Assembly (NCBI GenBank): GCA_965262615.1
Contig: OZ253545.1
Coordinates: forward strand, 1,115,113-1,179,112
Source of the DNA: Alphaproteobacteria bacterium
Lineage (GTDB): Bacteria > Pseudomonadota > Alphaproteobacteria > GM7ARS4 > G965262615
Reading direction: 5' to 3'
DNA length: 64,000 nt
Made by a program: the position numbers and the translations under genes. Numbering within the stretch: position 1 is the stretch's first letter; each line of letters begins with the position of its first letter. Below the pieces are notes generated by a model, which saw nothing but the letters and a program-made list of their open reading frames with translations, did no database searches and was not told the DNA's origin. Positions 23,327 through 56,173 of the stretch are shown here, piece after piece.

Positions 23327-23337
23327 GAGTGATGATG

Positions 23338-24726: not shown

Positions 24727-24779
24727 CTTAATTACTCCTATGACATTTGTGCCCGACAATGCTCTGCCCGACAATGCGA

Positions 24780-24866
24780 TGGTGCGGTCGAGAAGACTCG
24801 AACTTCCACGGGATCGCTCCCACAACGCCCTCAACGTTGCGCGTCTACCAGTTCCGCCACGACCGC
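24780..24866 (-). tRNA. tRNA-Leu (anticodon GAG), type II with long variable arm, CCA encoded
   Basis: Reverse complement reads GCGGTCG...CAACG-TTGAGGG-CGTTG...long variable arm...TCGACCGCACCA. The 7/7 acceptor stem, anticodon stem-loop and TpsiC-like GTTCGAGTC were folded by eye. Confidence 0.8.
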
Positions 24867-24907
24867 ACAACCATCACAATACCCCTAGCACATCTGATGA
24901 TGCCATT

Positions 24908-25051
24908 CAATGGACGGTCAGTGATTGTGTTCCCTATCCTGATGCCGTGCAATTCATGGAAGACACCATTGCCGCCATTCAATGGACGGTCAGTGATTGC
25001 GTTCCCTACCCTGATGCCGTGCAATTCATGGAAAACACCATTGCCGCCATT
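24908..25051 (+). repeat. 72-bp perfect-phase tandem duplication (2 copies, 3 mismatches) covering the lipB start region
   Basis: Seen directly in the sequence: CAATGGACGGTCAGTGATTG(T/C)GTTCCCTA(T/C)CCTGATGCCGTGCAATTCATGGAA(G/A)ACACCATTGCCGCCATT occurs twice. Confidence 0.9.
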
Positions 25052-25585: not shown

Positions 25586-25593
25586 GGGCTTCA

Positions 25594-26907: not shown

Positions 26908-26920
26908 ACTATTTTTGCGG

Positions 26921-27190
26921 CTATGTCTGCGCCATGTTTTTGATTGCCTTGTTGAGGCGTGACACCATGCGGGACACTGTCTTTTGGTGAAAAATCCCCT
27001 TGCGGGCGGCTCGTTGCAGTTCGGGTTCTACCTGTTTGAAGCCGAGCCGCGCGGCTTGTTCATCGTTATTGGCGATGGCGAGGCGTGTTTTTTTCACCAT
27101 CGTGCGCACTCGCGAGCGTCGCTCACGATTGATCTGCGTATGGCGCGCCGTCACACGCATACGCTTGATGGCTGAACGAATATTTGGCAT
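26921..27190 (-). CDS. rpsT: 30S ribosomal protein S20
   Basis: MPNIRSAIKRMRVT...RERRSRVRT is the characteristic S20 N-terminus; 89 aa. Confidence 0.9.
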   Translation of the reverse strand: MPNIRSAIKRMRVTARHTQINRERRSRVRTMVKKTRLAIANNDEQAARLGFKQVEPELQRAARKGIFHQKTVSRMVSRLNKAIKNMAQT

Positions 27191-27235
27191 GAATACCTCT
27201 CAATCCATTTGTGCCAATCATTGCGTGTCCTGTCA

Positions 27236-28048
27236 ATGCCCGAGCTGCCAGAAATTGAGACTCTCAAACGCTCCCTTGAGCCACTGGTGCTGAGACGGCG
27301 CATTGAGCGGGTCACCGTCTTTCAGCCTCATTTACGTTTTGCGGTGGCGGCGGATTTTGCTCGCCGTTGCCGTCATCAAACCATTCATGAATTGCAACGG
27401 CGCGGCAAGTATTTGTTGTGGAGAATGGACACAGACCAATTGCTCATTCATTGCGGCATGGCGGGCAGTCTGCACTACCATGCACGCAGAAGCGACCGCC
27501 GCAAGCATGACCATGTCATCATTGAACTGTCGGACGGCTTTGTTCATTATCATGATTCCCGCCGCTTCGGCTTAATGAGACTGATTTCCCACGAACACAA
27601 CGACACGGCTCTTGATACTTTAGGCAAAGAGCCTCTCAGTGATGACTTTACCGCAGACTGGCTATTAGATGTCTGTGGCGCGCAAAAAAGCGTCACCATA
27701 AAAACATTGCTGATGAATCAACATCTAATCGCGGGCTTGGGCAATATTTATGTGTGTGAGGCTTTGTATGAGGCACGAATTCATCCCGCTCGCACCGCAA
27801 AAACTATTTCGGGTGACGAAAGCATCATTCTTGTTGATGCCATCCGCCACACACTGCTCGCCGCCATTCAAAGCGGCGGCTCCACCATTCGTGATTACCG
27901 CAACAGTATGGGGGATACCGGATATTTTCAACATCATTTTAAGGTGTATGGAAGAGATAATGAACCATGCGCGAATTGTGATAATTACATTGTCAAAGAA
28001 AAAATGAACGGAAGAAGTAGTTTTTTTTGTCCTTCTTGTCAAAAATAA
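27236..28048 (+). CDS. mutM: Formamidopyrimidine-DNA glycosylase
   Basis: N-terminal MPELPEIETLKRSLE (catalytic Pro2/Glu3), H2TH region and a C-terminal CxxC...CxxC zinc finger. Confidence 0.9.
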   Translation: MPELPEIETLKRSLEPLVLRRRIERVTVFQPHLRFAVAADFARRCRHQTIHELQRRGKYLLWRMDTDQLLIHCGMAGSLHYHARRSDRRKHDHVIIELSDGFVHYHDSRRFGLMRLISHEHNDTALDTLGKEPLSDDFTADWLLDVCGAQKSVTIKTLLMNQHLIAGLGNIYVCEALYEARIHPARTAKTISGDESIILVDAIRHTLLAAIQSGGSTIRDYRNSMGDTGYFQHHFKVYGRDNEPCANCDNYIVKEKMNGRSSFFCPSCQK

Positions 28049-28063
28049 TGTGGTAGGTTAGAC

Positions 28064-28285
28064 ATGTCAGTTATGAAAATCCCACACCTAACAGAAGAAA
28101 TACTGAAAGCAAATGCAGATTATGACGCATGGCAAAATACACAGCGTCCATATAAGCAAGACAAAAAGATTGCCGAAGTCATGAGAGAAGCAAAAGGGCG
28201 CGGCTACATGACAAAAGATGACCTTGTGGCAGCTGCAGAAGTGGAAAGCACTCTAGAAATAAAACAGGTGCAAAGAAAATTCTGA
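28064..28285 (+). CDS. Hypothetical small protein in a low-GC islet
   Basis: ORF only. The adjacent out-of-frame ORF 28312..28590 may be a continuation, which would make this a disrupted gene. Confidence 0.25.
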   Translation: MSVMKIPHLTEEILKANADYDAWQNTQRPYKQDKKIAEVMREAKGRGYMTKDDLVAAAEVESTLEIKQVQRKF

Positions 28286-28603
28286 CACAATCATCAAACA
28301 GGTTACCGAAATTGCCTTTGCTCCTGATTGTGATGAGAAAAATCCGCGTTACAATTTTACAAAGAATTCACGGTGTCAACTGGGCGATGGCAAGTGTTAT
28401 TTTGCATTTTATTTTCCTGAAAGAATATCCGATTGTGGATATAAGAGCGATGGCAAGCGTAGGTGGTGTAACAAATTACAATTACAGCTTTGATAAATGG
28501 TGGGAATATACTTTGATTTGTCGCGAAGCTGCTAAAAAACACAATATAACCATGCGTGAGCTGGACAGAGTATTGGATGATAGACAGGCAAAGGAATTGA
28601 TGA

Positions 28604-28816
28604 TTATTTCTTCTTTGGCTTTGCATCCAACTTTTCGGCTTCCGCCTCCAACAAAATCGCGATGCCTTCTTTTATTGGATATGCCAGTTTCGCCTTGTCA
28701 CTAATTAGGCGTTGGGTTTTTTCGTCATACCGTAGTTTTCCGCCGCTCACCGGGCAGATTAAAAACTCAAGCAGCGAGGTATCAAAAGAATTAGACATCA
28801 AAGGAATTCCCGTCAT
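28604..28816 (-). CDS. Trm112/YcaR-like (UPF0434) small zinc-ribbon protein
   Basis: LLEFLICPVSGGKLRYDEKTQRLISDKAKLAYPIKEGIAILLEAEA matches the Trm112p-like family pattern. Confidence 0.6.
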   Translation of the reverse strand: MTGIPLMSNSFDTSLLEFLICPVSGGKLRYDEKTQRLISDKAKLAYPIKEGIAILLEAEAEKLDAKPKKK

Positions 28817-28824
28817 CAGTCATC

Positions 28825-29373
28825 TTATCTCATCCATTCATCATTTTGCAAGACTATTGGTTCATGGTGATGATGACGGGCAAACCGCCAGACATCCTCG
28901 CCGCGTAACGCCAGTGTCATGTCATTGACGAGAGGATGCACATAGACGCGTCCACCATTTCGCACTTGGTCATCCAGCAATAATCGCACCCGATGGTGGG
29001 TGTCGTTCATCACAGCCAGTGGCGTGACCGAACCAACGGGAACATGAAGACATTTCAGCACGCGCGCCTCATCGGCAAACGAGAGCCGCCGTGTGCCTAG
29101 ATTTTTTGCCACCGTCTGCCATGAGACGCGACAATTCGCACGGCATGTCAAAAGATACAAAGTCTTTGCATCACTTTCCGTTACACAGAGATTTTTGGTG
29201 TGAATGCCGTTGGGCAGTGCGTCATGAACGGCGGACGCATCCTCCACGCGCGGCGTGGGCGGATGCCGCCACAACTGCCATTCAATGGCAAGGGAATCCA
29301 ATTGGTGCAACAGATGAGTGACAACGGGCGGTAATGTGCCGTCAGCCTCACCGTTCCACAATGTAATGGTCAT
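28825..29373 (-). CDS. YbaK/ProX-like aminoacyl-tRNA deacylase domain protein
   Basis: KNLCVTESDAKTLYLLTCRANCRVSWQTVAKNLGTRRLSFADEARV...GSVTP resembles the YbaK editing-domain core. Confidence 0.45.
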   Translation of the reverse strand: MTITLWNGEADGTLPPVVTHLLHQLDSLAIEWQLWRHPPTPRVEDASAVHDALPNGIHTKNLCVTESDAKTLYLLTCRANCRVSWQTVAKNLGTRRLSFADEARVLKCLHVPVGSVTPLAVMNDTHHRVRLLLDDQVRNGGRVYVHPLVNDMTLALRGEDVWRFARHHHHEPIVLQNDEWMR

Positions 29374-29915
29374 CTATCGTCGGCAAAGCGGTCATGATTA
29401 AAGACATAGTCGCGTCCTTCCGCCGCCGCATGGCACAAAATACACCCGGTGCGTTCGCCCTTTGCCACTCGTCCAGCCAACGCAATGGCTCTGTTGTTTT
29501 TCATCACCGTGCCATCGGGGGCATACTTGACCCAAAACCAATTGCGGTTTTCCTCATCATATCCCTTCTCACGCTGCACCATCACGGTGATTGCCTTGAG
29601 ATAGCGCGCGGGATTGGCTGACACCCGTTCCACCGTCACCCCCGCAGGACCGTAATTGCGTTTGACAAGCACCCACATTTTTTTGCCGCCAATGCTCATT
29701 TGACGCTCCAAAAACTCCAGCACAAAACCGTGTGGCTCAACGCCCTCATAGAATTTCACATGAACGGGATTATCCCCCACCAGACGCATTTTCTTCAAGC
29801 CAAACCACAAGCCTTGAGCAAAACGAATGTCATCGGACTTGCCAAACTGCTGAGCGGAAGCATCAACCGTCCATAAGAGTGCAACGGACAATGTCCATGC
29901 CCATAGCCATCTCAT
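29370..29915 (-). CDS. Periplasmic mono-haem c-type protein, cytochrome P460/c'-beta-like
   Basis: Signal peptide; about 160-aa mature protein with a single CxxCH (CILCH) near the C-terminus, as in the P460 family. Confidence 0.4.
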   Translation of the reverse strand: MRWLWAWTLSVALLWTVDASAQQFGKSDDIRFAQGLWFGLKKMRLVGDNPVHVKFYEGVEPHGFVLEFLERQMSIGGKKMWVLVKRNYGPAGVTVERVSANPARYLKAITVMVQREKGYDEENRNWFWVKYAPDGTVMKNNRAIALAGRVAKGERTGCILCHAAAEGRDYVFNHDRFADDR

Positions 29916-32677
29916 TTTATTTTCTCCAGGCGCGCGGCGCAGTATTTGACCTCCGCAATCTTGCCAAAGGGATCCAAGGCATCATTGGTGAGTTTATTGA
30001 CGGCGGCATCCTCATAGCAAAACGGCATAAAAACCATGCCTTCGGGAATCTGCCTGTCCTCTCGCACATGGGTTTCAATGCGTCCCCGCCGCGTCTCCAA
30101 CGCGACACTGTCACCGATGCCCAGACGCAAGCGTTTCATTTCCTTAGGGGATAAATGCACAAAGGCGCGCGGCTCAATGGCATCCAGCACGCCCGCCCGC
30201 CGCGTCATAGAGCCGGTGTGCCAGTGCTCCAGCAAGCGTCCCGTGGTGAGAATGAGCGGATACTCCTCATCGGGCTGTTCATCGGGCGGCACAATGTCGG
30301 CACTGACCAAGCGTCCGCGTCCCGATTCGGTGGGAAAGCCATCGCCGAAAATGACAAACTCGCCCTCGGATTCCTCGCTGTCACAGGGATACACCACCCA
30401 TCCCTCTTTTTGCAAACGCTTCCACGAAATGCCCTTCATAGACGGCACACAGCTGCGCAATTCCTCATAAATCTCGCCCTCATCGGTGTAGCTCCAATTG
30501 AGTCCCATGCGATTGGCGAGGTCTTGAATAATCCGCCAATCATGACGCGCCTCACCGGGGGGCGACACCGCTTGGCGTCCCAACTGCACATAGCGGTCGG
30601 TGTTGGTGAAACTGCCGGTCTTTTCGGGAAACGCAGAGGCGGGCAGAATCACATCGGCAAGATAGGCGGTCTCGGTGAGGAAAATATCCTGCACCACCAA
30701 ATGCTCAAGGCGAGCCAATGCCTCGCGCGCATGGTGCGCGTCTGGGTCTGACATGGCGGGGTTCTCGCCCATGATGTACAAGCCCTTGATGGAACGCTCA
30801 TAGATGGCTTTCATAATCTCCACCACCGTCAAGCCCTTGTTGGCATTGAGGCTTGTGCCCCATTTTTTCTCAAAAAAGGCGCGCGTGTCATCATCATCCA
30901 CAGGCTGATAGTCGGGAAAGACCATGGGAATGAGCCCCATGTCGGACGCGCCCTGCACATTGTTTTGTCCCCGCAAAGGATGAAGCCCCGTGCCTTGTCT
31001 GCCCACCTGCCCGGTGAGCAGTGCCAGTGAGATCAAACAGCGAGCATTGTCAGTGCCATGCACATGCTGCGAGACGCCCATGCCCCAAAAAATCATGGCT
31101 CGGTCGGCTTTGCCATACAAAAGAGCCATCTCACGAATGACTTCGGCATCCACGCCACAAATGGGCGACATGGCTTCGGGGGAGAAATCCGCCACATGAT
31201 TTTTAATCTCTTCAAAGCCTTGCGTGTGAGTCTCCACATATTGTTTGTCCACCAAGCCCTCACTGATGATGACATTAATCATGGCGTTCAGCAGAGCCAC
31301 ATCAGTGCCCGCTCTGAACTGCACCGCGTGGGTGGCGTAGCGCGCCAGTTCATTGGCGCGCGGGTCTAGCACAATCAGCTGCGTTCCCTTCTTGGCGGCA
31401 TTTTTGATAAAAGTCGCCGCCACAGGATGATTTTGTGCCGGGCGCGCCCCAATCACAATGGCGACATCGGCGTGTGCCACATCAGAGACGGGAGCGGTCA
31501 CCGCACCGGAGCCAATGGTCTCCATCAATGCCGCCACCGATGACGCATGGCACAAGCGCGTGCAGTGATCCACATGATTATTACGAAAGCCCGTCCGCAC
31601 CAATTTTTGAAACAAATAAGCTTCCTCATTAGAGCCCTTAGCACAGCCAAATCCCGCCAGAGCATCAATGCCCGCCTCATCGCGCAGACGCACCAAGCCA
31701 GAGGCGGCGTAATCCAGAGCCTCATCCCAACTGGCTTCGCGAAAATGAGTCAACGGATTGCTGGGATCAAGGCGTTCTTCGGCGTTTTTGGGCGCGCCCT
31801 CACGGCGAATCAGCGGCTTGGTCAGACGATGAGGATGAGTCACATAGTCAAAGCCAAAGCGTCCCTTGACACACAAGCGTTGTTCATTGGCAGGGCCATC
31901 TCGTCCATCCACCGCAATGATGTCATTGCCCTTGGTGTGAAAGGTCAATTGACACCCCACCCCGCAATAAGGACACAAACTCTCCACATGGTCATCCGCC
32001 TTCAATGCACCCATGCCTTTGTCATCCAGCAGTGAGCTCTCCATCAATGCCCCCGTCGGACACGCCTGCACACACTCTCCGCATGACACACAACTGCTCG
32101 CGCCCATAGGGTCATCAAAGTCAAAGACAATCTTCGCCCCCGCCCCCCGATACGCCATGCCAATCACATCATTGACCTGCACATCGCGACACGCCCGCAC
32201 ACACAAATTACAATGAATACACGCATCCAAATGCACCGCCATGGCGTGATGACTGAGGTCAGGTGACGGCACATGAGATGATTCGCGCGCCGCAAAACGA
32301 CTGGAGGTGACTTCAACCGCATCCGCCATTTTCCAAAAATGCGAGTCATCATCATGGGCGCGCGTGCGTGGCGGCTGGTCAGCGACAAGCAATTCCATCA
32401 CCATGCGGCGAGAATCACGAGAGCGGTCATCTTTGCTCTGCACCACCATGCCTTCGGTGGGCTGGCGAATACAGGATGCCGATAGCACGCGCTCGCCCTC
32501 AATGTGCACCATGCAGGCGCGACAATTGCCGTCAGGCTCATAACCCACCTCATCGGCGTGACACAAATGGGGCAGCAGTGTGCCTTCTCGTTTGGCAACC
32601 TGCCAGATGGTCTCCCCTTCCCGAGCCTCCACATCACGCCCGTCCAAGCGAAACCGTATCGTTCTGTCCATTTTCAT
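29912..32677 (-). CDS. NAD-dependent formate dehydrogenase alpha subunit (FdsA/FdhF-type molybdopterin oxidoreductase with NuoG-like N-terminus)
   Basis: N-terminal 2Fe-2S ferredoxin and 4Fe-4S clusters (NuoG-like), the CPYCGVGCQL molybdopterin 4Fe-4S motif, then MopB and MopB-CT domains. Start at MKMDRTIRF overlaps the upstream stop (ATGA). Confidence 0.85.
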   Translation of the reverse strand: MKMDRTIRFRLDGRDVEAREGETIWQVAKREGTLLPHLCHADEVGYEPDGNCRACMVHIEGERVLSASCIRQPTEGMVVQSKDDRSRDSRRMVMELLVADQPPRTRAHDDDSHFWKMADAVEVTSSRFAARESSHVPSPDLSHHAMAVHLDACIHCNLCVRACRDVQVNDVIGMAYRGAGAKIVFDFDDPMGASSCVSCGECVQACPTGALMESSLLDDKGMGALKADDHVESLCPYCGVGCQLTFHTKGNDIIAVDGRDGPANEQRLCVKGRFGFDYVTHPHRLTKPLIRREGAPKNAEERLDPSNPLTHFREASWDEALDYAASGLVRLRDEAGIDALAGFGCAKGSNEEAYLFQKLVRTGFRNNHVDHCTRLCHASSVAALMETIGSGAVTAPVSDVAHADVAIVIGARPAQNHPVAATFIKNAAKKGTQLIVLDPRANELARYATHAVQFRAGTDVALLNAMINVIISEGLVDKQYVETHTQGFEEIKNHVADFSPEAMSPICGVDAEVIREMALLYGKADRAMIFWGMGVSQHVHGTDNARCLISLALLTGQVGRQGTGLHPLRGQNNVQGASDMGLIPMVFPDYQPVDDDDTRAFFEKKWGTSLNANKGLTVVEIMKAIYERSIKGLYIMGENPAMSDPDAHHAREALARLEHLVVQDIFLTETAYLADVILPASAFPEKTGSFTNTDRYVQLGRQAVSPPGEARHDWRIIQDLANRMGLNWSYTDEGEIYEELRSCVPSMKGISWKRLQKEGWVVYPCDSEESEGEFVIFGDGFPTESGRGRLVSADIVPPDEQPDEEYPLILTTGRLLEHWHTGSMTRRAGVLDAIEPRAFVHLSPKEMKRLRLGIGDSVALETRRGRIETHVREDRQIPEGMVFMPFCYEDAAVNKLTNDALDPFGKIAEVKYCAARLEKIK

Positions 32678-34401
32678 GAGATTCCTACCTCCTGTGGAAA
32701 AAATCTTAACGCACAGTCTATCGGATTTCCAGCCGCTTGTCCAAGCCCACAAATAGAGGCATCTCGCATGGCACTCACCAGCTGTGTGAGCAGTGGTGCG
32801 TTCCACTGATTTTTCTCCAGCAACGCCACCGCCTTTTCCGTTCCCACACGACAGGGGGTGCATTGTCCGCAGCTCTCATCTTCAAAAAAGCGCAACAGAT
32901 TGACAACCACATCGCGCACCGAATCTTTGTCAGAAAACACCACCACCGCCGCCGAGCCCAAAAAGCACCCGTGTTCCTCCAATTGACCAAAATCCAATGG
33001 AATGTCCGCCATGCTGGCAGGCAGCACCCCACCTGATGCCCCACCGGGCAGATAGCCTTTGAATTCATGTCCGTCTTCCATGCCATCACAATGCTCATGG
33101 AGCAATTCGTTCATGGTGATGCCCGCCGCCGCCACCTTAACACCGGGATTTTTCACCCTGCCCGAGACCGAAAAGGAATGAATTCCCTTGAAATCCCCCT
33201 TGCCCAAAGAGGCATACCATGACGCTCCTTTTTCCATGATGTCACGAATCCAATACACCGTCTCCACATTTTGATTGAGTGTGGGTTTGCCAAAGAGTCC
33301 CACCGTTGAAATATACGGCGGCTTGTGACGAGGCATCCCCCGCTTGCCTTCAATGCTTTCAATCATGGCGGATTCTTCGCCGCAGATATATGCTCCCGCG
33401 CCGCGCCGCACATGAATGGCGGGCAAGGACGGCAATGAGGTATTCACAACGGTCAATTCTTTCATCAGCATGTGATGAATGGCGGGATACTCATCTCGCA
33501 GATAGATATAGATGGCTTGTGCCTCCACCGCCCATGCGGCAATGAGCGCGCCCTCCAAGAAACGATGAAGATCCTTTTCCATGTAGTATTTGTCTTTGAA
33601 GGTGCCTGGCTCGCCTTCATCGGCATTGATGGTCAGCAAGCGCGGTTTGGAGGCGGCTCGCACAAATTTCCATTTTTGCGCCGCAGGAAAGCCCGCGCCG
33701 CCTTTGCCGCGCAGATTCGCCTGCCCCAGCTGTTCAATCACCTGTTCGGGATCATGTTGCCCCGCCACGCACGCCTCATACAAACGATACCCCCCCTCGC
33801 GGCGATAGATGCCAAAATCTCTGTAGGATGGCACGACAGGGGCGATGTCTTTTTTGCTGACGGTCTTTTTGATGTCCGCCAAAGTGCTGTGTGCCAAATG
33901 GTGCTGCCCCACGACCGTGACGGGAGCTTCATCGCATCGTCCCATGCAGGGAGCCGCCACCACCCGCACGGAATCATCGTTTTGCCACTGTTTTTGAGCC
34001 TCCGCCAACAGGGATGATGCTCCCCGCAACGCACAACTGATGCTGTCACACACCCGCACGGTGATGTGCGGCACGGTGGCATCATCGGCACAAATATCAA
34101 AGTGAGCGTAAAAGCTCGCCACTTCAAACACTTCGGCAAGGGGCAGACGCAAAATCTCCGCCAGTGCCACCAAATGACGATGAAACAATGCTCTTTGCGA
34201 ATCCTGCAATCGGTGCAAATACTCCACCAACAAATCTCGGCGCAAGGGCATTGCTCCTAACAGAGCGCGCACTTCCTTGAGTGATGCCTCATCGGCTTGC
34301 CGTCCCTTCGGATAAGGGACATACATGCTTTGCGGCATATTTTTGCGTCCTTCCTTCAGGGTCTTGGTGTTCATGAATTGACAATGACCCATAACCACCA
34401 T
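32674..34401 (-). CDS. Fused gamma-beta subunit of NAD-linked formate dehydrogenase (NuoE-like 2Fe-2S plus NuoF-like FMN/NADH/4Fe-4S)
   Basis: NuoE-type cysteines (CDSISC), the NuoF FMN motif GKGGAGFPAAQKW, and 4Fe-4S ESCGQCTPCR. Confidence 0.85.
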   Translation of the reverse strand: MVVMGHCQFMNTKTLKEGRKNMPQSMYVPYPKGRQADEASLKEVRALLGAMPLRRDLLVEYLHRLQDSQRALFHRHLVALAEILRLPLAEVFEVASFYAHFDICADDATVPHITVRVCDSISCALRGASSLLAEAQKQWQNDDSVRVVAAPCMGRCDEAPVTVVGQHHLAHSTLADIKKTVSKKDIAPVVPSYRDFGIYRREGGYRLYEACVAGQHDPEQVIEQLGQANLRGKGGAGFPAAQKWKFVRAASKPRLLTINADEGEPGTFKDKYYMEKDLHRFLEGALIAAWAVEAQAIYIYLRDEYPAIHHMLMKELTVVNTSLPSLPAIHVRRGAGAYICGEESAMIESIEGKRGMPRHKPPYISTVGLFGKPTLNQNVETVYWIRDIMEKGASWYASLGKGDFKGIHSFSVSGRVKNPGVKVAAAGITMNELLHEHCDGMEDGHEFKGYLPGGASGGVLPASMADIPLDFGQLEEHGCFLGSAAVVVFSDKDSVRDVVVNLLRFFEDESCGQCTPCRVGTEKAVALLEKNQWNAPLLTQLVSAMRDASICGLGQAAGNPIDCALRFFPQEVGIS

Positions 34402-34705
34402 GATTGCAAGCTCAGCTATCCGATAAAATCAGCTGAATATCGCGCAATCTTTATTGACGAGGCGAGTCTTTTGCCAGTCATGTTTTGGGATGCCTCACCT
34501 TTTGGGATGCCTCATCGGCCTGCCGTCCCTTCGGATAAGGGACATACATGCTTTGCGGCATATTTTTGCGTCCTTCCTTCAGGGTCTTGGTGTTCATGAA
34601 GCGACAATGACCCATAACCGCCATGATTGCAAGCTCAGCTATCCGATAAAATCAGCTGAATATCGCGCAATCTTTGTTGATGGGGTGAGTCTTTTGCGAG
34701 CCATG
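34283..34705 (+). repeat. Tandem duplication, period 223 bp (two ~200-bp copies, about 97% identical), covering the fdsGB 5' end and intergenic region
   Basis: GATGCCTCATCGGC(T/C)TGCCGTCCCTTCGGATAAGGGACATACATGC... recurs at 34283 and 34506. Confidence 0.9.
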
Positions 34706-35954
34706 TGTTGGCGCGCTGCGTGTGACGCTGTGCACTTTCGCCATCCCCCATGAGCAGGCTGCGTTCTGCCAGAGCCAGTTCGGCGAGTCCCATGTTGCCA
34801 TTGCGTCCTGCCGCCGTGCTGTAAAAATGCCACGCCATGATGTTGTCGGATTCCTCCACCAGCACCAATTCCAATGCCTGCAACACCAGTGGCAGCAACG
34901 ATTCATCATTCATCGCCAGTGCGGCTTGCGCCCATCCCATTAAAATGAGCGGATGATTATCGCTCAGCTCCACCGCGCGCGCATACGATATGACGGCGGC
35001 ATGAGGCTGACCGTGTTCAAACAAAATCTGCCCTCGCAGTTCGTGCAGGTATGGGTCGTTTTCTCGCCCTTGCAAAAGTCCATCAATGATTGCCAGTGCA
35101 GTGTTCACATCCCCCGCTCGGTGGTGCACAATGGCTTTGGCGTAGTGACTGCCGAAGGAGTTGGGGTGAGTGGCGTAGAAATCAAGCACTTCATTGGGGG
35201 GCAGTAAAAACCCTTTGAGTTTGGCAACCATGCGCTCATGACGCATCTCATCGTGGGGATGATGGCAGCAGTCGTGCGGTTCATGATGCAGATGCTCCGC
35301 CATGAGGCGAATGCGCTCACCACTGAGAGGGTGGGTGAGTTGATAGGGGTCTATGTCCAAGCCTTGTTCTTTTTCTGCCAGCATGGAGAGGAATGAGTAT
35401 AGCCCTCCCACCGATTGTCCGCTGTTTTGCAGATAACTGACGGCGGCTTGGTCTGCCAGCGTCTCGTTGTGACGAAATTCCTCCAGCAACAGGCGATTGC
35501 CCACATTGGGCATGGCGATGACCCCCGCCAGCCCCACATCAAACTGCCCGCCTGCCATGGCGGCGGCACTGAGCAGCATGGTCATGAGATTGAAGATGCT
35601 GGTGTCAAAGGCGGCATCCTGCAGACGCAACAAATGCCCGCCGGTGATGTGTCCGATTTCGTGCGCCAGCACCCCCTTGACCTCATCGGCATTGCGGGTG
35701 TTCATCAAAAGCCCACTGTGCAAAAACATCCGTTGCCCCTCGGTGACAAAGGCATTGATGGATGAGTCGTTCAGCACCACCATCTGCACGGTGCCGAAAT
35801 CCAGCCCGCCCGCCGCAGCCAAAGGATACGCCCAAGAGTTAAGAGTGTCTTCAATTTCAGCGTCGCGAATGATGCTCGCAGCGGGGGTTGATGACGCAAC
35901 CACGCTCACCCACGACATCAGCACAAGAAAAATAAAGCGTTTCATAAAGGTCAT
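34635..35954 (-). CDS. M48-family zinc metalloprotease with C-terminal TPR domain (BepA/YfgC-like), periplasmic
   Basis: Signal peptide, HEIGHITGGH zincin motif and C-terminal TPR-like repeats. The 3' end lies inside copy 2 of the tandem duplication. Confidence 0.8.
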   Translation of the reverse strand: MTFMKRFIFLVLMSWVSVVASSTPAASIIRDAEIEDTLNSWAYPLAAAGGLDFGTVQMVVLNDSSINAFVTEGQRMFLHSGLLMNTRNADEVKGVLAHEIGHITGGHLLRLQDAAFDTSIFNLMTMLLSAAAMAGGQFDVGLAGVIAMPNVGNRLLLEEFRHNETLADQAAVSYLQNSGQSVGGLYSFLSMLAEKEQGLDIDPYQLTHPLSGERIRLMAEHLHHEPHDCCHHPHDEMRHERMVAKLKGFLLPPNEVLDFYATHPNSFGSHYAKAIVHHRAGDVNTALAIIDGLLQGRENDPYLHELRGQILFEHGQPHAAVISYARAVELSDNHPLILMGWAQAALAMNDESLLPLVLQALELVLVEESDNIMAWHFYSTAAGRNGNMGLAELALAERSLLMGDGESAQRHTQRANTWLAKDSPHQQRLRDIQLILSDS

Positions 35955-35999
35955 AGTATGATATAATCATGACGGTTAGCAAGGCAAAGGGCAAGAATC

Positions 36000-37652
36000 A
36001 TGAACAACAAAAAACTCATCGCATGGATTGCCATCACCGTCATTGCCCACACGGGATGGACAATGGGCGTGGCTCATGCCGATGAAACGGTAGATTTGCA
36101 CCAATTGATGGAAGACGCTCAACAAGGCGATGCCGATGCCCAATTCTATCTTGGGTTGATGTATGGCAATGGCGCGGGTGTCACGCAGGATTATGAGGCA
36201 GGCATCTATTGGGTCACAAAAGCCGCGGAACAATGGCATGCCGATGCCCAATACGCTCTTGGGGTGTTTTATAAAAATGGCGATGGTGTGGCACAGAATT
36301 ATGAGAAAGCCGTGTATTGGTATCAAAAAGCCGCGGCGCAAGGAAATGCCGATGCCCAATACGATCTTGGGTTGATGTATGGCAAGGGCGCAGGTGTCAC
36401 GCAGGATTATGAGGCAGGCATCTATTGGTTCACAAAAGCCGCAGAGCAAAACCATGCTGATGCAATAGAAATACTCAAGGAATTAGGCATGGCTCATGAA
36501 ACGGACGAATTGCACCATTTGATGGAACGCGCCCAGCAAGGCGACTCCGTATCCCAATTCTATCTTGGGACGATGTATGAACAGGGCAGAGGTGTCTCTC
36601 GAGATGTTGGACAAGCGGTGCAATGGTATCAAAAAGCCGCCAAGCAAGGATTTGCCCAAGCCCAATACAACCTTGGGTGGATGTATGAAAATGGCACAGG
36701 TGTTCCGCAAGATGATGAACAGGCGGTAGAATGGTATCAAAAAGCCGCGGCACAAGGACTTGCCAATGCTCAAAACAATCTGGCGGAGATGTATCGCGAG
36801 GGCAGAGGTGTTCCGCAGGATGATGAGCAAGCGTTGGAATTGTATCTAAAATCCGCCGAGCAAGGATATGATCGCGCTCAAACCACTATGGGCTGGATGT
36901 ATGACAATGGCATTGGTGTTGTGCAAGATTATGAGCAAGCCGCGCAATGGTTCACAAAAGCCGCGGTGCAAGGATTTGCCCGAGCTCAAAGTAATCTTGC
37001 TATGATGTATCTTCATGGCAGAGGTGTTCCGCAGGATTATGAGCAAGCCGCGCAATGGTGGAGAAAAGCCGCAAGGCAAGGCTATGCCAAGGCTCAATTC
37101 AATCTTGGGCTGATGTATCACAATGGAGATGGGGTTGCACAGGACGATGAGCAAGCTTTGTATTGGTGGGAGAAAGCCGCAAGACAAGGAAATAAAGATG
37201 CAATAGAAGCTCTCAAAATATTAGGCATGGCTGATGAAACGGACGAATTGCACCAATTGAGAGAACGCGCCGAGCAAGGCGATGCCGATGCCCAAAACTA
37301 TCTTGGTGTGATGTATAACACTGGCATGGGTGTGACGCAGGATAAAAAAGAAGCCGTGGAATGGTTCAAAAAATCCGCCGAACAAGGAAATGCCCTCGCC
37401 CAAGCCAATCTTGGAGTGATGTATAGGGATGGGATGGGTGTCACGCAGGATGATGAGGAAGCTGTGGAATGGTGGAAAAAAGCCGCAGAGCAAGAAAATG
37501 CCGTAGCCCAATACAATCTTGCTGTGATGTATGGCAAGGGAATCGGCGTGGCACAGAGTGATGAAAAAGCCGTCTATTGGTTCACAAAAGCCGCCAAACA
37601 AGGCGATGTTGATGCAATAGAAGTTCTCAAGAAATTAGGCATCACCGACTGA
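36000..37652 (+). CDS. Secreted Sel1-like repeat protein (550 aa; three tandem modules each ending DAIE-LK-LGM)
   Basis: Signal peptide ...IAHTGWTMGVAHA and about 13 Sel1 repeats. The last module is about 95% DNA-identical to 13380..13625. Confidence 0.85.
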   Translation: MNNKKLIAWIAITVIAHTGWTMGVAHADETVDLHQLMEDAQQGDADAQFYLGLMYGNGAGVTQDYEAGIYWVTKAAEQWHADAQYALGVFYKNGDGVAQNYEKAVYWYQKAAAQGNADAQYDLGLMYGKGAGVTQDYEAGIYWFTKAAEQNHADAIEILKELGMAHETDELHHLMERAQQGDSVSQFYLGTMYEQGRGVSRDVGQAVQWYQKAAKQGFAQAQYNLGWMYENGTGVPQDDEQAVEWYQKAAAQGLANAQNNLAEMYREGRGVPQDDEQALELYLKSAEQGYDRAQTTMGWMYDNGIGVVQDYEQAAQWFTKAAVQGFARAQSNLAMMYLHGRGVPQDYEQAAQWWRKAARQGYAKAQFNLGLMYHNGDGVAQDDEQALYWWEKAARQGNKDAIEALKILGMADETDELHQLRERAEQGDADAQNYLGVMYNTGMGVTQDKKEAVEWFKKSAEQGNALAQANLGVMYRDGMGVTQDDEEAVEWWKKAAEQENAVAQYNLAVMYGKGIGVAQSDEKAVYWFTKAAKQGDVDAIEVLKKLGITD

Positions 37653-37682
37653 TTCCCCCTCGCCTTGAGGCAAGGACAGGCA

Positions 37683-38114
37683 TCAAAAAAGTGCCGTGGC
37701 AACCATTCCCAACAGAGCCACCATCACGCTCACAAGAACAACAATCACCCGCGTCGCAAAGAGATTGAAAGCCTGCAACAACACATTGATATCTTCCTTA
37801 ATTTCAGTTCGCGCCTGAGCGATTTGAGTTTCCAGTTTGGCGATTTGAGTTTCCAGTTTGGCGTTATTTTCATTATTTTCAGCTCGCGCCTGAGCGATTT
37901 GAGCTTCCAGTTTGGCGATTTGAGCTTCCAGTTTGGCGATTTTGGTCTCCAGTTTGGCGATATCTTCCTTCGTGGCAAAATTCTTGCCTTGCTCTTTGAT
38001 GGTGGCAACATCCACCTTCAGAGCAACCACATCCGCTTTGAGGGCGACCACATCATCATACAAGCCATTCGCCTTGCGATGTTCGGTTGGTTTTTGTTCC
38101 GTCTGGATAGTCAT
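37683..38114 (-). CDS. Small coiled-coil protein with C-terminal TM anchor (DUF1640/CCDC90-like, tail-anchored)
   Basis: ...ALKADVVALKVDVATIKE...FATKEDIAKLE(IAKLEAQ)n...RVIVVLVSVMVALLGMVATALF. The ATKxDL/I motif and C-terminal TM resemble DUF1640. Start set at MTIQTEQ because the ORF-track extension is the promoter. Confidence 0.55.
   Translation of the reverse strand: MTIQTEQKPTEHRKANGLYDDVVALKADVVALKVDVATIKEQGKNFATKEDIAKLETKIAKLEAQIAKLEAQIAQARAENNENNAKLETQIAKLETQIAQARTEIKEDINVLLQAFNLFATRVIVVLVSVMVALLGMVATALF
37804..37957 (-). repeat. In-frame 21-bp tandem repeats (about 5 copies; heptad IAKLE(A/T)Q) nested within a ~75-bp repeat
   Basis: GATTTGAG(T/C)TTCCAGTTTGGC repeated on the plus strand. 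Confidence 0.85.
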
Positions 38115-38183
38115 GGTGGTTAGAATATGTGCATTTGCAGGGTTTGTCAATGCCAAGATGCCTTACGGTCATTGCAGATGACC
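38115..38183 (-). promoter_or_regulatory. Conserved promoter TTGACA-N17-TATTCT-N7-ATG plus upstream palindrome GGTCATTGCAGATGACC (38167..38183)
   Basis: Promoter and palindrome are conserved upstream of 4 of the 5 DUF1640-like paralogs (41657..41735, 45649..45715, 46249..46300). Confidence 0.5.
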
Positions 38184-38294
38184 ATGAGCAAGAGAAAACA
38201 TCACTCAAAACATTGGGCATACCCAACTAATTCGCCCTCGCTCTTGCTTTTTGCCATTGGTTTTTGTATGGGTGGCGTGCCCAATGGCAATCAA

Positions 38295-39476
38295 ATGAGG
38301 ATAGCTCCATTGAATGATCGACATCTCCCGTCTCGCCGCAGTGCCATTCCCTCATTTATTGTGATGGACATGATGGCGAAGGCATCGGCACTGGAACGGC
38401 GCGGGGTGAAGGTCATGCGTTTGGAGGCGGGCGCGCCGGACACCGCTCCGCCGCCCGCCATCCTCAAACAACTGGCACACACCCTCACCAAGCGCAATTT
38501 TGGCTACACCGATTCCACCGGAACGCCCCAGCTCAAAGAACGCATTGCATGGCTCTATGGGCATCGCTATGGGCTTGAGATTGACCCATCCCGCATCGTC
38601 ATCTCCAGTGGCTCATCGGCGTGTCTGACTCTGGCACTGCTGGCGGCGTTTGAGCATGGGGATGTGATTGCTCTGCCGCGTCCGTGTTATCCCGCCTATC
38701 GCCCCATGGCGGAGGCGTTGGGTCTGCGGGTGGTGGATATGCCGCTCACGGATGAGGACGGCTGGTGTCTGACGGCGCGTCATATTGAGCAGTGTGAGAC
38801 CAAACCGAGCGGCATCATTCTCACCAATCCCGCCAACCCCACCGGCGCACTGATGGACGAACACCAACTGGCAACCATTGCTGATTATTGCCGACATAAT
38901 GGTATCCGCATCATCAGCGATGAGATTTATCACGATGTCACCGATGATGACCACACAGCTCACAGCATCCTCTCGTTTGACCCCGATGCCATCGTGACCA
39001 GTGGCTTTTCCAAGTTTTTTGCGCTGCCGGGCTGGCGTGTGGGCTGGATGATCGCGCCTGTCGCTTTTGCCTCCTCCCTGCTGGCATTACAGCAAAATCT
39101 CTATGTCGCGCCGCCCAGCGCAGGACAAGAACTCGCGATTTCCATGCTACAAGAAGAGGTTATGGACACCATGAAACACCATGTACGGCGATGGAATGAC
39201 AACCGCAATGTTTTGTTGCGGTTTATTGAGCAAAGCCCACTCAGTCTGACGGCTCAGCCGCGCGGCGGATTTTACATTTATTGCGATGCCGCCGCCGTCA
39301 CCCATGACAGCGTGGCGTGGTGTGATGAGATATTGCATCGTCATCATGTGGCACTGGCGGCGGGCGTGGATTTTGACCCCGTGGACGGTCATAAATTCGT
39401 GCGTTTTTCCTTCTGCCGACCAAACAATGAGATTACTACTGCCTGCAAGATTCTCGACAAAGTGTTTAATTCTTAA
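38295..39476 (+). CDS. Class I/II (aspartate/aromatic-type) PLP aminotransferase
   Basis: PLP-lysine motif SGFSKFFALPGWRVGW and N-terminal ...SAIPSFIVMDMMAKASALERRG. Confidence 0.8.
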   Translation: MRIAPLNDRHLPSRRSAIPSFIVMDMMAKASALERRGVKVMRLEAGAPDTAPPPAILKQLAHTLTKRNFGYTDSTGTPQLKERIAWLYGHRYGLEIDPSRIVISSGSSACLTLALLAAFEHGDVIALPRPCYPAYRPMAEALGLRVVDMPLTDEDGWCLTARHIEQCETKPSGIILTNPANPTGALMDEHQLATIADYCRHNGIRIISDEIYHDVTDDDHTAHSILSFDPDAIVTSGFSKFFALPGWRVGWMIAPVAFASSLLALQQNLYVAPPSAGQELAISMLQEEVMDTMKHHVRRWNDNRNVLLRFIEQSPLSLTAQPRGGFYIYCDAAAVTHDSVAWCDEILHRHHVALAAGVDFDPVDGHKFVRFSFCRPNNEITTACKILDKVFNS

Positions 39477-39553
39477 CCGTGAAAAAGCTGTTTTATCAGC
39501 CTCATCAGTGTGATACAATCGCGGCGGTCAATTGATGGCGCGAGGAGTTTGGT

Positions 39554-41077
39554 GTGGAAAAATTCTTTGAATACATTTTCCCAAAAAAAATCAGTACGAG
39601 GTCGCGAGTCTGTCTCTTATTCCTTGTACCCGCATTGTCCATTTTAATCCTTCTTCCATCAATTCTTGAAGCTTGGAATCAACCTCCATTGCCAAGCCAA
39701 TTTTTCTATTCTTTAATTACGGTAACAGGATTTCTGCTTTTTGCTTTGATTTTATCATTAATAAAAGATTTTGAAAAATCATCCGAGCCAACGCGTGACA
39801 TAGCTAAAGACTTACATGATATGCTTCCTGAATTGGCGTTGTATATCACCGAACAATTGGTATCGGATAACATAAAAAATATGCAAAAGAAAGAAGCAAC
39901 AAGACAATTTAATCTTGGTGTCAAACATTTATTTGGCAAGGGTGTTAAAAAAAATGCACAAAAAGCATTCCTCCACTTTGAAGCAGCCGCCCAACAAGGG
40001 GATGCCTACGCCCAATTCAATCTTGCTTTGATGTATAGGAATGGCAAAGGAGTGGCACAAAATGATAAGAAAGCCCTGTATTGGTATCAAAAAGCCGCCC
40101 AACAAGGGGATGCTAGAGCCCAATTCAATCTTGCTTGGATGTATCATGAGGGCAAAGGAGTGGCACAGAATGATGAGAAAGCCCTGTATTGGTATCAAGA
40201 ATCCGCCCAACAAGGGGATGCTAGAGCCCAATTCAATCTTGCTTTAATGTATCATGAGGGCAAAGGAGTGGCACAAAATGATGAGAAAGCCCTGTATTGG
40301 TATCAAAAAGCCGCCCAACAAGGGAATGCCAAAGCCCAATTCAATCTTGCTTGGATGTATGATGAGGGCAAAGGAGTGGCACAGAATGATGAGAAAGCTG
40401 TGTATTGGTATCAAGAATCCGCCCAGCAAGGGGATGCCAAAGCCCAATTCAATCTTGCTTGGATGTATGATGAGGGCAAAGGAGTGGCACAAAATGATAA
40501 GAAAGCACTATATTGGTATCAAGAATCCGCACAACAAGGAAGTGCCAGAGCCCAAATCAGTCTTGGGATGGCTTATGTTGGCGGAAAAGGTATTTCACAG
40601 GATTATCATGAGGCGATGCAATGGTTCAAAAAAGCCGCAGAACAAGGGAGTACCGATGCCCAAAACAATATTGGCTTTATGTATGCCACTGGCATGGGTA
40701 TTAAACCAAATGAGAAAAAAGCAGTGCATTGGCTCACAAAAGCTTCAGAGCAAGGATTTGCCATAGCCCAATTCAATCTCGCTGTGGTGTATGAAAGTGT
40801 GACACAGAATGATCAAAAAGCGAAGCACTGGTATCAAAAAGCCGTCCAGCAAGTTAGTGACGAAACCAAATTCACTCAGCAAGAAGAGCAGGAGAGGATC
40901 AAAGAAGCGGAACAAGAAGGGGATGCCAATTCCTTGTATCTTCTTGGCGTGAGATACGCCATTGGCGAAGAAGTCACGCGAGATTATGAAAAAGCGGCGC
41001 ACTGGTTCACCCAAGCATCTCAGCTGAACTTTATTCAAGCCACGCGAGCTCTTGAATTGCTGAAAAAAGTCAAATAA
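39554..41077 (+). CDS. Sel1-like repeat protein with N-terminal TM segments (AQFNLAxMYxEGKGVAQNDxKA variant)
   Basis: About 11 Sel1 repeats. Confidence 0.85.
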   Translation: MEKFFEYIFPKKISTRSRVCLLFLVPALSILILLPSILEAWNQPPLPSQFFYSLITVTGFLLFALILSLIKDFEKSSEPTRDIAKDLHDMLPELALYITEQLVSDNIKNMQKKEATRQFNLGVKHLFGKGVKKNAQKAFLHFEAAAQQGDAYAQFNLALMYRNGKGVAQNDKKALYWYQKAAQQGDARAQFNLAWMYHEGKGVAQNDEKALYWYQESAQQGDARAQFNLALMYHEGKGVAQNDEKALYWYQKAAQQGNAKAQFNLAWMYDEGKGVAQNDEKAVYWYQESAQQGDAKAQFNLAWMYDEGKGVAQNDKKALYWYQESAQQGSARAQISLGMAYVGGKGISQDYHEAMQWFKKAAEQGSTDAQNNIGFMYATGMGIKPNEKKAVHWLTKASEQGFAIAQFNLAVVYESVTQNDQKAKHWYQKAVQQVSDETKFTQQEEQERIKEAEQEGDANSLYLLGVRYAIGEEVTRDYEKAAHWFTQASQLNFIQATRALELLKKVK

Positions 41078-53348: not shown

Positions 53349-54860
53349 ATGATAAAATCGGGCAGTCTTGCAAAAGGCATTACGACAATCTTTTTCTTTG
53401 GCATCATTGCGTATGGTTTGGCTCTCGCCTTTCCCATAGAGGGAGCGTGTAGCCTCACCAGTGCTTCATTGGATGCCCGTATCAATCACGCCATTTGCCC
53501 CATCAGCAGCAGTTTGGCGTCCTTGGTGTTTTTCACCGTGCCGTTTTTTGGTGGCGAAGCCATGTTTGTGGTCTTGTTGCTCATCGGCACGGCTCTTGTG
53601 CTCACTTTTTATCTCAATTTTGTCAATATCAGAGGCTTGAGGCAATCGTGGCGCGTGCTCAAAAAAGGACGCACAAAGGAAAAAGAAGGCGCAGGCGAAC
53701 TCAGTCACTTTCAAGCCATGACCGCCGCCCTTTCGGGAACGGTGGGACTGGGAAATATTGCTGGAGTCGCCATTGCCATCTCCATCGGAGGACCGGGCGC
53801 AATCTTTTGGATGGTGGTCGCAGGATTTCTCGCCATGGCAACCAAATTCGCCGAATGCACCATCGGACACCAATACCGACACATTCGCAAAGATGGCAGT
53901 GTCTCGGGCGGGGCGATGTATTATCTCACCATTGGACTTGGGGAACGGCGAATGCCCATGCTGGGCAGTGTTCTGAGCTCGGCTTTTGCGCTGTTTTGTG
54001 TGGGCGTTTCCCTCGGAGCCGGCAACATGTTTCAAGCCAACCAAGCCTTTGAACAACTGGACAGTGTGGTCTCTCACAGTCTGCTGGGTTATGGCTGGCT
54101 CTTTGGCACGGTGGTGGCGGTGATGGTGGCTTTTGTCATTATTGGCGGCATCAAAAGCATCGGCAGAGTCACCGAAAAACTCGTGCCCACCATGGGCGCG
54201 ATTTATATCATCGGCTGTCTTTTGATTATTATGACGCATATCGGTCAGCTGCCCGAAACTTTTGCTAAAATCATACACCAAGCCTTCACCCCCGATGCCC
54301 AATACGGCGGCATCATTGGCGTGATGATGTGGGGCTTTCGCCGCGCTCTGTTCTCCAATGAGGCGGGACTGGGCTCTGCCCCCATTGCCTATGCCGCCGT
54401 CAAGACAAAAAACTCCGCCTCCGTAGGATACATCGCCCTGCTGGGGCCCTTTATTGACACAGTCGTCATTTGCACCATGACGGGACTCGTGATTGTCATC
54501 AGTGGCTCCTATCTCGGCACGGAAGGGCTCACAGGAGTCACCATGACCTCCCAAGCCTTTGCATCGGTTGCTTCTTGGTTTCCCTATGTGCTCACGGTGG
54601 CGATTTTATTGTTCTCGTTCTCCACCCTCATCACATGGTCTTATTATGGACTGAAGGGCTGGAGCTTTTTGTTTGGTGAGAGCAAATTCACCGAAGGCGT
54701 GTTCAAGACACTCTTTTGCGTCTGTATTGTTGTGGGAGCGGCGATGGATGTGACCCAAATCGTCAATTTGTCCGATGCCATGATCTTCCTCATGCTTGTG
54801 CCTAATTTGGTGGGACTCATCATCTTCGCCCCCACCATCCGAAAACATTTGGCTTCATAA
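53349..54860 (+). CDS. Alanine/glycine:cation symporter (AGCS family)
   Basis: GGPGAIFWMVVAGFLAMATKFAEC motif; about 11 TM segments; 503 aa. Confidence 0.85.
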   Translation: MIKSGSLAKGITTIFFFGIIAYGLALAFPIEGACSLTSASLDARINHAICPISSSLASLVFFTVPFFGGEAMFVVLLLIGTALVLTFYLNFVNIRGLRQSWRVLKKGRTKEKEGAGELSHFQAMTAALSGTVGLGNIAGVAIAISIGGPGAIFWMVVAGFLAMATKFAECTIGHQYRHIRKDGSVSGGAMYYLTIGLGERRMPMLGSVLSSAFALFCVGVSLGAGNMFQANQAFEQLDSVVSHSLLGYGWLFGTVVAVMVAFVIIGGIKSIGRVTEKLVPTMGAIYIIGCLLIIMTHIGQLPETFAKIIHQAFTPDAQYGGIIGVMMWGFRRALFSNEAGLGSAPIAYAAVKTKNSASVGYIALLGPFIDTVVICTMTGLVIVISGSYLGTEGLTGVTMTSQAFASVASWFPYVLTVAILLFSFSTLITWSYYGLKGWSFLFGESKFTEGVFKTLFCVCIVVGAAMDVTQIVNLSDAMIFLMLVPNLVGLIIFAPTIRKHLAS

Positions 54861-54882
54861 TCCGAGCTCATGAAAATAGAAA

Positions 54883-54910
54883 AGCCCAAGCCCCGAAAGG
54901 CTTGAGCTTT
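54883..54910. terminator. Bidirectional rho-independent terminator hairpin (10-bp stem, 1 mismatch, loop CCGAAA)
   Basis: AGCCCAAGCC-CCGAAA-GGCTTGAGCT, flanked by T-rich sequence on the minus strand and TTT on the plus strand. It sits between the convergent symporter and the pqqA-like ORF. Confidence 0.6.
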
Positions 54911-54932
54911 CCCTACCGAATGGCTGAAGCTC

Positions 54933-55010
54933 TTAGACTTCGGCGCAAGCGTAGCTGTTGATTTCCAAACCAACGCTCACTTCGGTGACCTTAGGTGTGT
55001 TCCAAGACAT
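54933..55010 (-). CDS. pqqA: PqqA-like 25-aa RiPP precursor peptide (coenzyme PQQ precursor family)
   Basis: MSWNTPKVTEVSVGLEINSYACAEV aligns position-by-position with Methylorubrum PqqA (MKWAAPIVSEICVGMEVTSYESAEI), including the crosslinked E-x-x-x-Y pair. An AAGGAG RBS lies 7 nt upstream. Missing from the ORF track because it is under 60 aa. Confidence 0.7.
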   Translation of the reverse strand: MSWNTPKVTEVSVGLEINSYACAEV

Positions 55011-55161
55011 GGCACGACTCCTTTAGGGTTGACAAAACGATGAACTCCCGTTCACTTGTCGCCAACATAGACTTCTTGTGTGAATAGAAAATGAAAATGA
55101 TAATGATTTGCAAAAAAATACAACAAAATTAACTAAGGGAATTAATTTGACACACGGCAAA

Positions 55162-55472: not shown

Positions 55473-55778
55473 CTAATCATCGCTGCCGCACTTGCCCTCG
55501 CCGATACAAATGGCATAGGCTGATGCGCCCACAACAATCATGGTGGGCACAGCCGATATGACCGTGGCGGCGGCATCACAGGTATCAAACTGTTTAATCA
55601 GCTGCTCCTTTGTGAACGGCGGACGACGCTTATTCTCAAGGGCATCCTTATAGCGCACCAGTTCCACCTCAAGGGCACTCTTACACGCCGAGCCATAAGG
55701 CACAAGCACCGTGGACTTGCCAACACTGCACCCCGTCAGCACAACAGACACCATCAATAAAGAAAAAATCCTCATCAT
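55473..55778 (-). CDS. Small lipoprotein (lipobox LTGC) with C-terminal hydrophobic segment; tandem paralog 1
   Basis: MMRIFSLLMVSVVLTGCSVGKSTVLVPYGSACKSALEVELVRYKDALE...; about 65% identical to the next gene. Confidence 0.55.
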   Translation of the reverse strand: MMRIFSLLMVSVVLTGCSVGKSTVLVPYGSACKSALEVELVRYKDALENKRRPPFTKEQLIKQFDTCDAAATVISAVPTMIVVGASAYAICIGEGKCGSDD

Positions 55779-56125
55779 CCACCTCCACCACCTTGACTAT
55801 TTGTCGGTGGCGGTGGCCCATCGTCATCATCAGAGCCGCATTTGCCTTCACCGAGACAGAAGGCATACGCCGATGCTCCCACAACAATAATCGCCGGCAC
55901 CGCCGAGACCACCGTCGCCACCGAATCACAGTCATCAAACTGATTGATCAAATCATCCTTTGAGAACGATGGGCGACGCTTGCGCTCCAACTCATCCTCA
56001 TGACGCACCAACTCCACTTCAAGAGCATCCTTACACGCCGTCCCAAAAGGAACAAGAACCGTGGACTTGCCAATGCTACACCCCGAAATCAAGGCACATA
56101 AACCCAGTAAGAACAAAAATCTCAT
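55775..56125 (-). CDS. Small lipoprotein (lipobox ISGC); tandem paralog 2 with Asp/Pro/Gly-rich tail
   Basis: MRFLFLLGLCALISGCSIGKSTVLVPFGTACKDALEVELVRHEDELE... The exact start is ambiguous (Met at 56125 or further upstream). Confidence 0.55.
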   Translation of the reverse strand: MRFLFLLGLCALISGCSIGKSTVLVPFGTACKDALEVELVRHEDELERKRRPSFSKDDLINQFDDCDSVATVVSAVPAIIVVGASAYAFCLGEGKCGSDDDDGPPPPTNSQGGGGG

Positions 56126-56173
56126 AACCTTTCTCTCCTCAACTCGTAGGGTCATTGTGCCACAAATTGTCAC

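Follow-up and report, generated by a model that had tools for sequence, protein, structure and literature searches.

A stand-alone pqqA gene, very probably separated from its pqqBCDE genes, in a putatively sponge-associated alphaproteobacterium

Peptides of the PqqA family are short, about 20 to 40 aa, with an N-terminal W-x-x-P leader motif, and a position directly upstream of pqqB is typical of their genes without defining them. The stretch of alphaproteobacterial DNA analyzed here, referred to below as the window, is 64,000 nucleotides long and contains a 25-codon open reading frame (ORF) that resembles pqqA. It does not lie directly upstream of pqqB; its neighbors are a symporter gene, small ORFs, and the dcw cluster. 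Judged alone, the window presents a precursor without a pathway. This raises the questions of whether such a short ORF is a pqqA gene and, if it is, where the genes that process its product are located.

The ORF runs on the minus strand at 54933..55010, where it reads (from 55010 to 54933) ATG TCT TGG ... GTC TAA, i.e., 25 codons plus a stop, and its product is MSWNTPKVTEVSVGLEINSYACAEV. The first-pass annotation had identified this peptide as PqqA-like, including the Glu/Tyr pair, and two family models judged against their curated cut-offs bear this out. The PqqA equivalog model TIGR02107 matched across all 21 of its positions (1-21) with 41.5 bits (cut-off, 20; E value, 8e-11), and PF08042 (PqqA) gave 29.1 bits (cut-off, 21.1; E value, 1e-6). 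Even with an estimated 1,000 or so small ORFs in the window, these scores far exceed a chance match. The 25-aa peptide has W3 and P6 of the leader motif, and the cross-link pair is conserved as E16-I-N-S-Y20. It aligns with the annotated PqqA peptides of Azospirillum, Sphingomonas, Sinorhizobium, and others, and a PDB sequence search returned 0 matches. A tblastn search of plasmids agrees with the assignment: every annotated match was named pqqA, all hosts were Alphaproteobacteria, and the best match, from Azospirillum thermophilum, showed 68% identity. On these sequence matches, we identify the 25-codon ORF as a real pqqA gene, encoding the peptide precursor of PQQ.

The surroundings of the gene are as they had first been described. 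A Na/Ala symporter gene (53349..54860, plus strand) converges on pqqA, and upstream of it, on the minus strand, lie a hydrophilic 98-aa ORF and a pair of small paralogous lipoproteins, with the lipoboxes LTGC and ISGC. Further upstream is a dcw cluster with the order murG-murC-murB-ddl-ftsQ-(379-aa ORF)-ftsZ, in which the 379-aa ORF in the ftsA position had no family match in Pfam. The two lipoproteins (55473..56173, minus strand) are about 100-117 aa long, share a conserved C-terminal GEGKCGSDD, and likewise had no Pfam family match; a contig of the same species (L065) carries three such paralogues at 12261..13412. The reported absence of flanking pqqBCDE genes extends to the whole window: neither Pfam scans of essentially every long ORF nor tblastn with the PqqB-E proteins of A. 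thermophilum (L001) found pqqB, pqqC, pqqD, or pqqE anywhere in the 64 kb. A PQQ-dependent dehydrogenase was also absent from the 64 kb by Pfam scans and by tblastn with the Azospirillum XoxF methanol/ethanol dehydrogenase, and the fetched loci of the clade showed none either. The pqqA ORF was the sole match in the window to the PqqA-E and dehydrogenase queries, and it is the single pqqA in the 64 kb. The flanking sequence, at least 9 kb toward one side and 55 kb toward the other, thus contains no pqq or quinoprotein gene.

Other parts of the window contain several further gene groups. At least 14 genes for Sel1-repeat proteins, with 3-12 repeats each, are spread over 872..41077 (e.g., 872-2203, 2296-3495, 3511-4620, 4712-5260, 5771-7078, 11767-13053, 13078-14565, 15307-17348, 20464-22020, 36000-37652, and 39554-41077). 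Sel1 repeats are a eukaryote-like repeat family, and such an expansion is typical of host-associated bacteria. A gene for a PAPS-reductase-like protein adjoins one for a GmrSD-type (DUF262/DUF1524) endonuclease at 7667..10825, and a DNA methylase-HNH nuclease fusion is encoded at 22055..23326; both regions are possible DNA-modification or restriction modules. A gene group at 29370..34401 (minus strand) codes for a cytochrome P460-like protein, for the alpha subunit of a molybdopterin formate dehydrogenase, with Fe-S domains, and for a subunit similar to NuoE/NuoF; together they resemble an NAD-linked formate dehydrogenase, which would be consistent with C1 metabolism.

We looked for the gene at the same site in relatives, which were located through the adjacent symporter and hence independently of the peptide. 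L065, an ENA contig of 556 kb from sample ERZ26695794, belongs to the same species, with neighboring proteins 92-99% identical, and carries an identical pqqA at the syntenic site. Another locus (L061, 95% nucleotide identity) ends inside pqqA, and the last 18 codons encode the same residues. A much more distant relative is L062, from Logan run SRR28167753, whose neighboring proteins are only 28-66% identical to those of the window (HemB, 63%; symporter, 66%; Ddl, 54%; FtsZ, 43%). Its gene order is kept (bio genes-hemB-CoA transferase-symporter-[pqqA]-ftsZ-[ftsA-position ORF]-ftsQ-ddl), and the pqqA between symporter and ftsZ encodes MSWNTPSVSEVSVGLEINSYACAEV, which differs from the window peptide at 2 residues and retains the Glu/Tyr pair. 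The coding sequence is 88% identical at the nucleotide level, with 3 synonymous and 2 nonsynonymous codon changes, compared with 66-70% for the neighboring genes. Start, stop, an AGGAG-type ribosome-binding site (RBS), and a hairpin with a T-run after the stop are all kept in L062, whereas the intergenic DNA cannot be aligned beyond ~28 nt upstream of the ATG, and a ros/mucR gene replaces the 98-aa ORF and the lipoproteins. The reading frame is thus conserved in relatives, as the first-pass annotation would have it for a genuine gene. The automated gene calls on both the L062 and L065 records omit it.

The signals around the ORF that were noted at first pass, an AAGGAG 7 nt upstream and a terminator hairpin downstream, are both present. 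The Shine-Dalgarno sequence AAGGAG occupies 55018..55023 (minus strand) with a 7-nt spacer to the ATG, and the block CAACCCTAAAG(A)GGAG around it is kept in L062. An intrinsic terminator lies at 54866..54913 (minus strand) and consists of a GC-rich hairpin of 16 bp (54913..54878) followed by a U-rich tail (ATTTTCAT); the hairpin folds with a minimum free energy of -27.4 kcal/mol (z = -3.4), and 0 of 200 shuffled sequences folded equally well. A hairpin and T-run also follow the pqqA stop in L062 and in two further loci with solitary pqqA genes (L055 and L025), with different stem sequences. A match to the Rhizobiales small RNA Atu_C9 at 54874..54910 (plus strand) stayed below the Rfam gathering score (19.9 bits; threshold, 40) and was rejected; it coincides in position with the terminator hairpin, which it probably reflects. 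On the 5' side, the AT-rich intergenic region at 55024..55161 (minus strand) is the presumed promoter site; a sigma-70 consensus scan upstream of pqqA found no site. Because L062 keeps pqqA while its upstream gene is ros/mucR rather than the 98-aa ORF, the comparison suggests that pqqA carries its own promoter. Within the coding sequence, synonymous sites in the 3' half (GAAATCAACAGCTACGCTTGCGCCGAAGTCTAA; 54942..54975 and homologues) are nearly invariant among genomes in which the remaining genes share only ~60% identity. An RNA-level function of this half might be imagined, but the pattern is likely explained more simply by preferred codons (ATC, AAC, AGC, TAC, TGC, and GAA) in a highly expressed gene.

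For a broader sample of homologues, representative genomes only were scanned with a restrictive, degenerate DNA pattern (W-N-T-P-x3-E-x3-G-x-E-I-N-x-Y-A-C). The scan yielded 59 loci, all alphaproteobacterial and mostly from metagenome-assembled genomes (MAGs). At ~43 of these, the peptide gene lies directly 5' of pqqB(CDE), sometimes in 2-3 tandem copies (tandems occur in L006, L014, L054, L056, and L059), and at the other ~16 it stands alone in the 8 kb available. On one contig, a solitary gene (L010) and one linked to a cluster (L052) encode identical peptides. Only 3 residues separate the window peptide from the cluster-linked peptides of L014 and L056 (MSWNTPKITEIAVGLEINSYACAEV), and because of this we regard the former as an ordinary PQQ precursor type. 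The Glu-x-x-x-Tyr pair is invariant in 65 of 65 distinct homologous sequences, a count to be read with the fact that the pattern itself required the pair; L062, found independently of the pattern, has it as well. None of the 59 loci is syntenic with the window, and only the pqqA coding sequence aligns. Since the design of the pattern biases codon-position statistics on these homologues, selection was judged from L062, L061, and L065 instead.

The location of the pathway genes can be approached through relatives. The third-best symporter match comes from OZ255830.1, the nearest complete genome, which is a circular alphaproteobacterial MAG of 1.63 Mb; the same chromosome holds L055, a solitary pqqA whose product (MSWNTPKIVEVSVGLEINSYACAEV) ranks among the two nearest to the window peptide. 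A PqqC search found P0180 on OZ255830.1, within a pqqB-pqqC-pqqD-pqqE locus (L064; PqqC at 10001-10891) whose flanks, ~9 kb ahead of pqqB and 8.5 kb beyond pqqE, contain no pqqA-like ORF; the pattern scan found a single pqqA in this genome. With P0180 as the query, the nearest relatives were P0257 (74% identity) and P0255 (72%). The former lies on a 147-kb contig of ERZ26695794 (L066; PqqC at 10001-10828), the same sample as L065, and the latter on a 10-kb contig of SRR28167753 (L067; PqqC at 2064-2900), the same sample as L062. Both contigs carry pqqBCDE and are syntenic, with pqqBCDE followed by a small ORF, exbB-exbD-exbD-tonB, and the nuo genes from nuoA onward (exbB through nuo at 12828-20828 in L066 and 4975-10196 in L067), and neither has a pqqA in the fetched sequence. 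Taken together, the L064, L066, and L067 clusters have no pqqA within the about 1 to 9 kb of sequence available upstream of pqqB, nor elsewhere in the fetched loci. In this clade, PqqC is 275-296 aa long and carries an N-terminal extension compared with the ~250 aa of most homologues. One might speculate that the TonB energizing system beside the PQQ synthesis genes relates to the uptake of lanthanides or other metals.

Sequence composition ties these clusters to the organisms with the stand-alone gene. Tetranucleotide correlations were 0.97 between L066 and positions 20-64 kb of the window, 0.96 between L066 and L065, and 0.95 between L067 and L062, against 0.93 for a same-genome control (L063 to L064) and 0.1-0.7 for unrelated alphaproteobacterial loci. 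GC content was 52.8% in L066 and 52.9% in L065, and the two contigs have coverages of 8.45x and 10.37x, respectively. Clustering at 90% identity gave 15 members for the symporter and 10 for PqqC, both mostly from ENA with two Logan members each, and no assembly among the cluster members had the symporter and PqqC on one contig. From sample co-occurrence, composition, and coverage, we infer strongly that pqqBCDE very probably lies far from this site in the genome of the window organism.

We therefore consider it highly likely that the window gene is a functional, autonomously expressed pqqA, separated from pqqBCDE, and that this pqqA would most likely be the main, and possibly the only, precursor gene of its genome. 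The first-pass annotation had suggested a stand-alone extra copy served by a pqq cluster elsewhere. The stand-alone part and the cluster elsewhere agree with our findings, as pqqBCDE genes occur elsewhere, on contigs or at loci that come from related organisms and very probably from this one; the "extra" part does not fit as well. Such a redundant copy would add to or fine-tune the supply from a primary pqqA beside pqqBCDE or elsewhere, like pqqA2 and pqqA3 of strain AM1 (PMC11317620). Multiple copies are common, as seen in the tandems and in the contig with identical orphan and cluster-linked peptides, and there are precedents in the literature (PMC11317620, PMC4109929). In this clade, however, the three pqqBCDE loci are without a pqqA of their own in the fetched flanks, which makes the window pqqA more likely to be the principal gene than an extra one, and both the complete relative OZ255830.1 (by pattern scan) and the 64-kb window have a single copy. 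An additional copy is thus an improbable account of this gene.

It is very improbable that the peptide is a PqqA-like precursor for a different radical-SAM/SPASM maturase with a product other than PQQ, a recruitment that had also been proposed at first pass and to which its physical separation from pqqBCDE, and nothing beyond that, would point. Radical_SAM, SPASM, and PqqD-like domains were absent from the window ORFs scanned with Pfam and from the syntenic L062 and L065, leaving the 64 kb with no radical-SAM or RiPP-recognition gene. The peptide also matches the PqqA equivalog model from end to end and is nearly identical to alphaproteobacterial copies upstream of pqqB, from which it differs by 3 residues, and the solitary pqqA contexts across genomes show no recurrent neighbor that would indicate an alternative maturase. 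A mycofactocin MftA-type or other radical-SAM RiPP precursor, which would be recognized by an adjacent maturase and RiPP-recognition protein, was rejected in the same way, as neither gene adjoins pqqA. Finally, a chance ORF or an unexpressed, decaying relic, as might be suspected from the very short length and the missing consensus promoter, is effectively refuted by the model E value and by L062, where frame, start, stop, RBS, and terminator persist within unalignable intergenic DNA and the coding sequence is better conserved than its neighbors.

Stand-alone pqqA genes in methylotrophs, to which the first-pass annotation had alluded, are indeed on record. In Methylosinus trichosporium OB3b, with pqqBCDE and pqqFG clusters, pqqA is unlinked and was originally unpredicted, and it is expressed at about the level of mxaFI while pqqBCDE expression is far lower, at a modest level (PMC3615186). 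The arrangement proposed here matches that of OB3b most closely: in both cases, an alphaproteobacterial PqqA is encoded away from pqqBCDE by a single small ORF that would form its own transcription unit and that automated annotation missed. The two differ in neighborhood, since the gene described here sits between the tail of the dcw cluster and the Na/Ala symporter, and in host, which here is probably sponge associated and has many Sel1-repeat genes. Methylorubrum extorquens AM1 has the orphans pqqA2 and pqqA3 (PMC11317620), and Methylophilaceae have 3-12 pqqA copies with one pqqBCDE set (PMC4109929); in Methylovorus, the supply of PqqA is described as rate-limiting in work cited by PMC11317620. 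In these bacteria too, stand-alone pqqA genes feed one pqqBCDE set elsewhere in the genome, but pqqA is also retained in front of pqqB, which makes the orphans extra copies, whereas the clusters of the present clade have none. The canonical pqqABCDE arrangement on the A. thermophilum plasmid (L001) offers a further contrast. Its peptide shares 68% identity, the W..P...E...G.E...Y core, and the ...YACA tail with the window peptide, but its gene lies ~200 nt upstream of pqqB and beside a PQQ-dependent methanol/ethanol dehydrogenase gene.

By analogy with the established pathway, the peptide would be bound by the chaperone PqqD, and the radical-SAM enzyme PqqE would link the Glu16 gamma-carbon with the Tyr20 ring, in keeping with the C-C bond that this radical-SAM/SPASM enzyme forms between glutamate and tyrosine (PMC5715301). 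Proteases, PqqB, and PqqC would then complete the cofactor, the cross-linked pair being released and oxidized to PQQ in these later steps. The precursor gene would thus act as a mini-gene between the dcw cluster tail and the symporter, with its own RBS, its own terminator, and presumably its own promoter, while pqqBCDE would be transcribed from a distant locus that lacks pqqA and, in the closest relatives, adjoins exbBD-tonB and nuo. Separate placement would allow much higher expression of the precursor, as PQQ synthesis needs, and such a mini-gene, whose RBS is strong and whose terminator is tight, would suit the known requirement that precursor transcripts greatly outnumber those of the enzymes. 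In L055 (5691-5768) and L025 (5979-5902), which are more distant members of the clade, the solitary pqqA genes converge on a homologous gene of ~395 aa (44% identity) and not on a symporter, so the mini-gene holds at least 2 different chromosomal sites within the clade. A bolder proposal, which we put forward tentatively and think unlikely as a whole, is that the only pqqA of this clade is permanently uncoupled and moves between sites as an RBS-ORF-terminator unit, that its independent regulation (e.g., by methanol or lanthanides) controls PQQ supply, and that the peptide may serve the symbiosis in a second way, for example through metal handling or cross-feeding.

The peptide variant ...EVSVGLEINSYACAEV is common only to the window, L062, L055, and L025. 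The last of these is the MAG GM202ARS2, assigned to "Ca. Methylospongiales," a group of sponge-associated alphaproteobacteria with small genomes that are predicted methylotrophs (PMC7313196), and the order GM7ARS4 has also been reported from Halisarca (PMC12391866). The window organism is therefore most likely, and plausibly, a sponge-associated alphaproteobacterium, and it may have a C1-oxidizing lifestyle. The many Sel1-repeat genes and the putative NAD-linked formate dehydrogenase fit this Methylospongiales-like picture.

What we know of PQQ biosynthesis is unchanged by this gene, as unlinked pqqA genes have already been documented in methane- and methanol-using bacteria. Its value lies mainly in annotation. 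Gene callers skip the 25-codon pqqA, which is absent from the public records of the relatives, and consequently a genome of this lineage would appear to have pqqBCDE without a precursor. The split arrangement supports the idea that these sponge-associated bacteria may synthesize their own PQQ, which would fit the proposal of methylotrophy in "Ca. Methylospongiales," and in this way the gene adds a little to what can be said about metabolism in a lineage of sponge symbionts.
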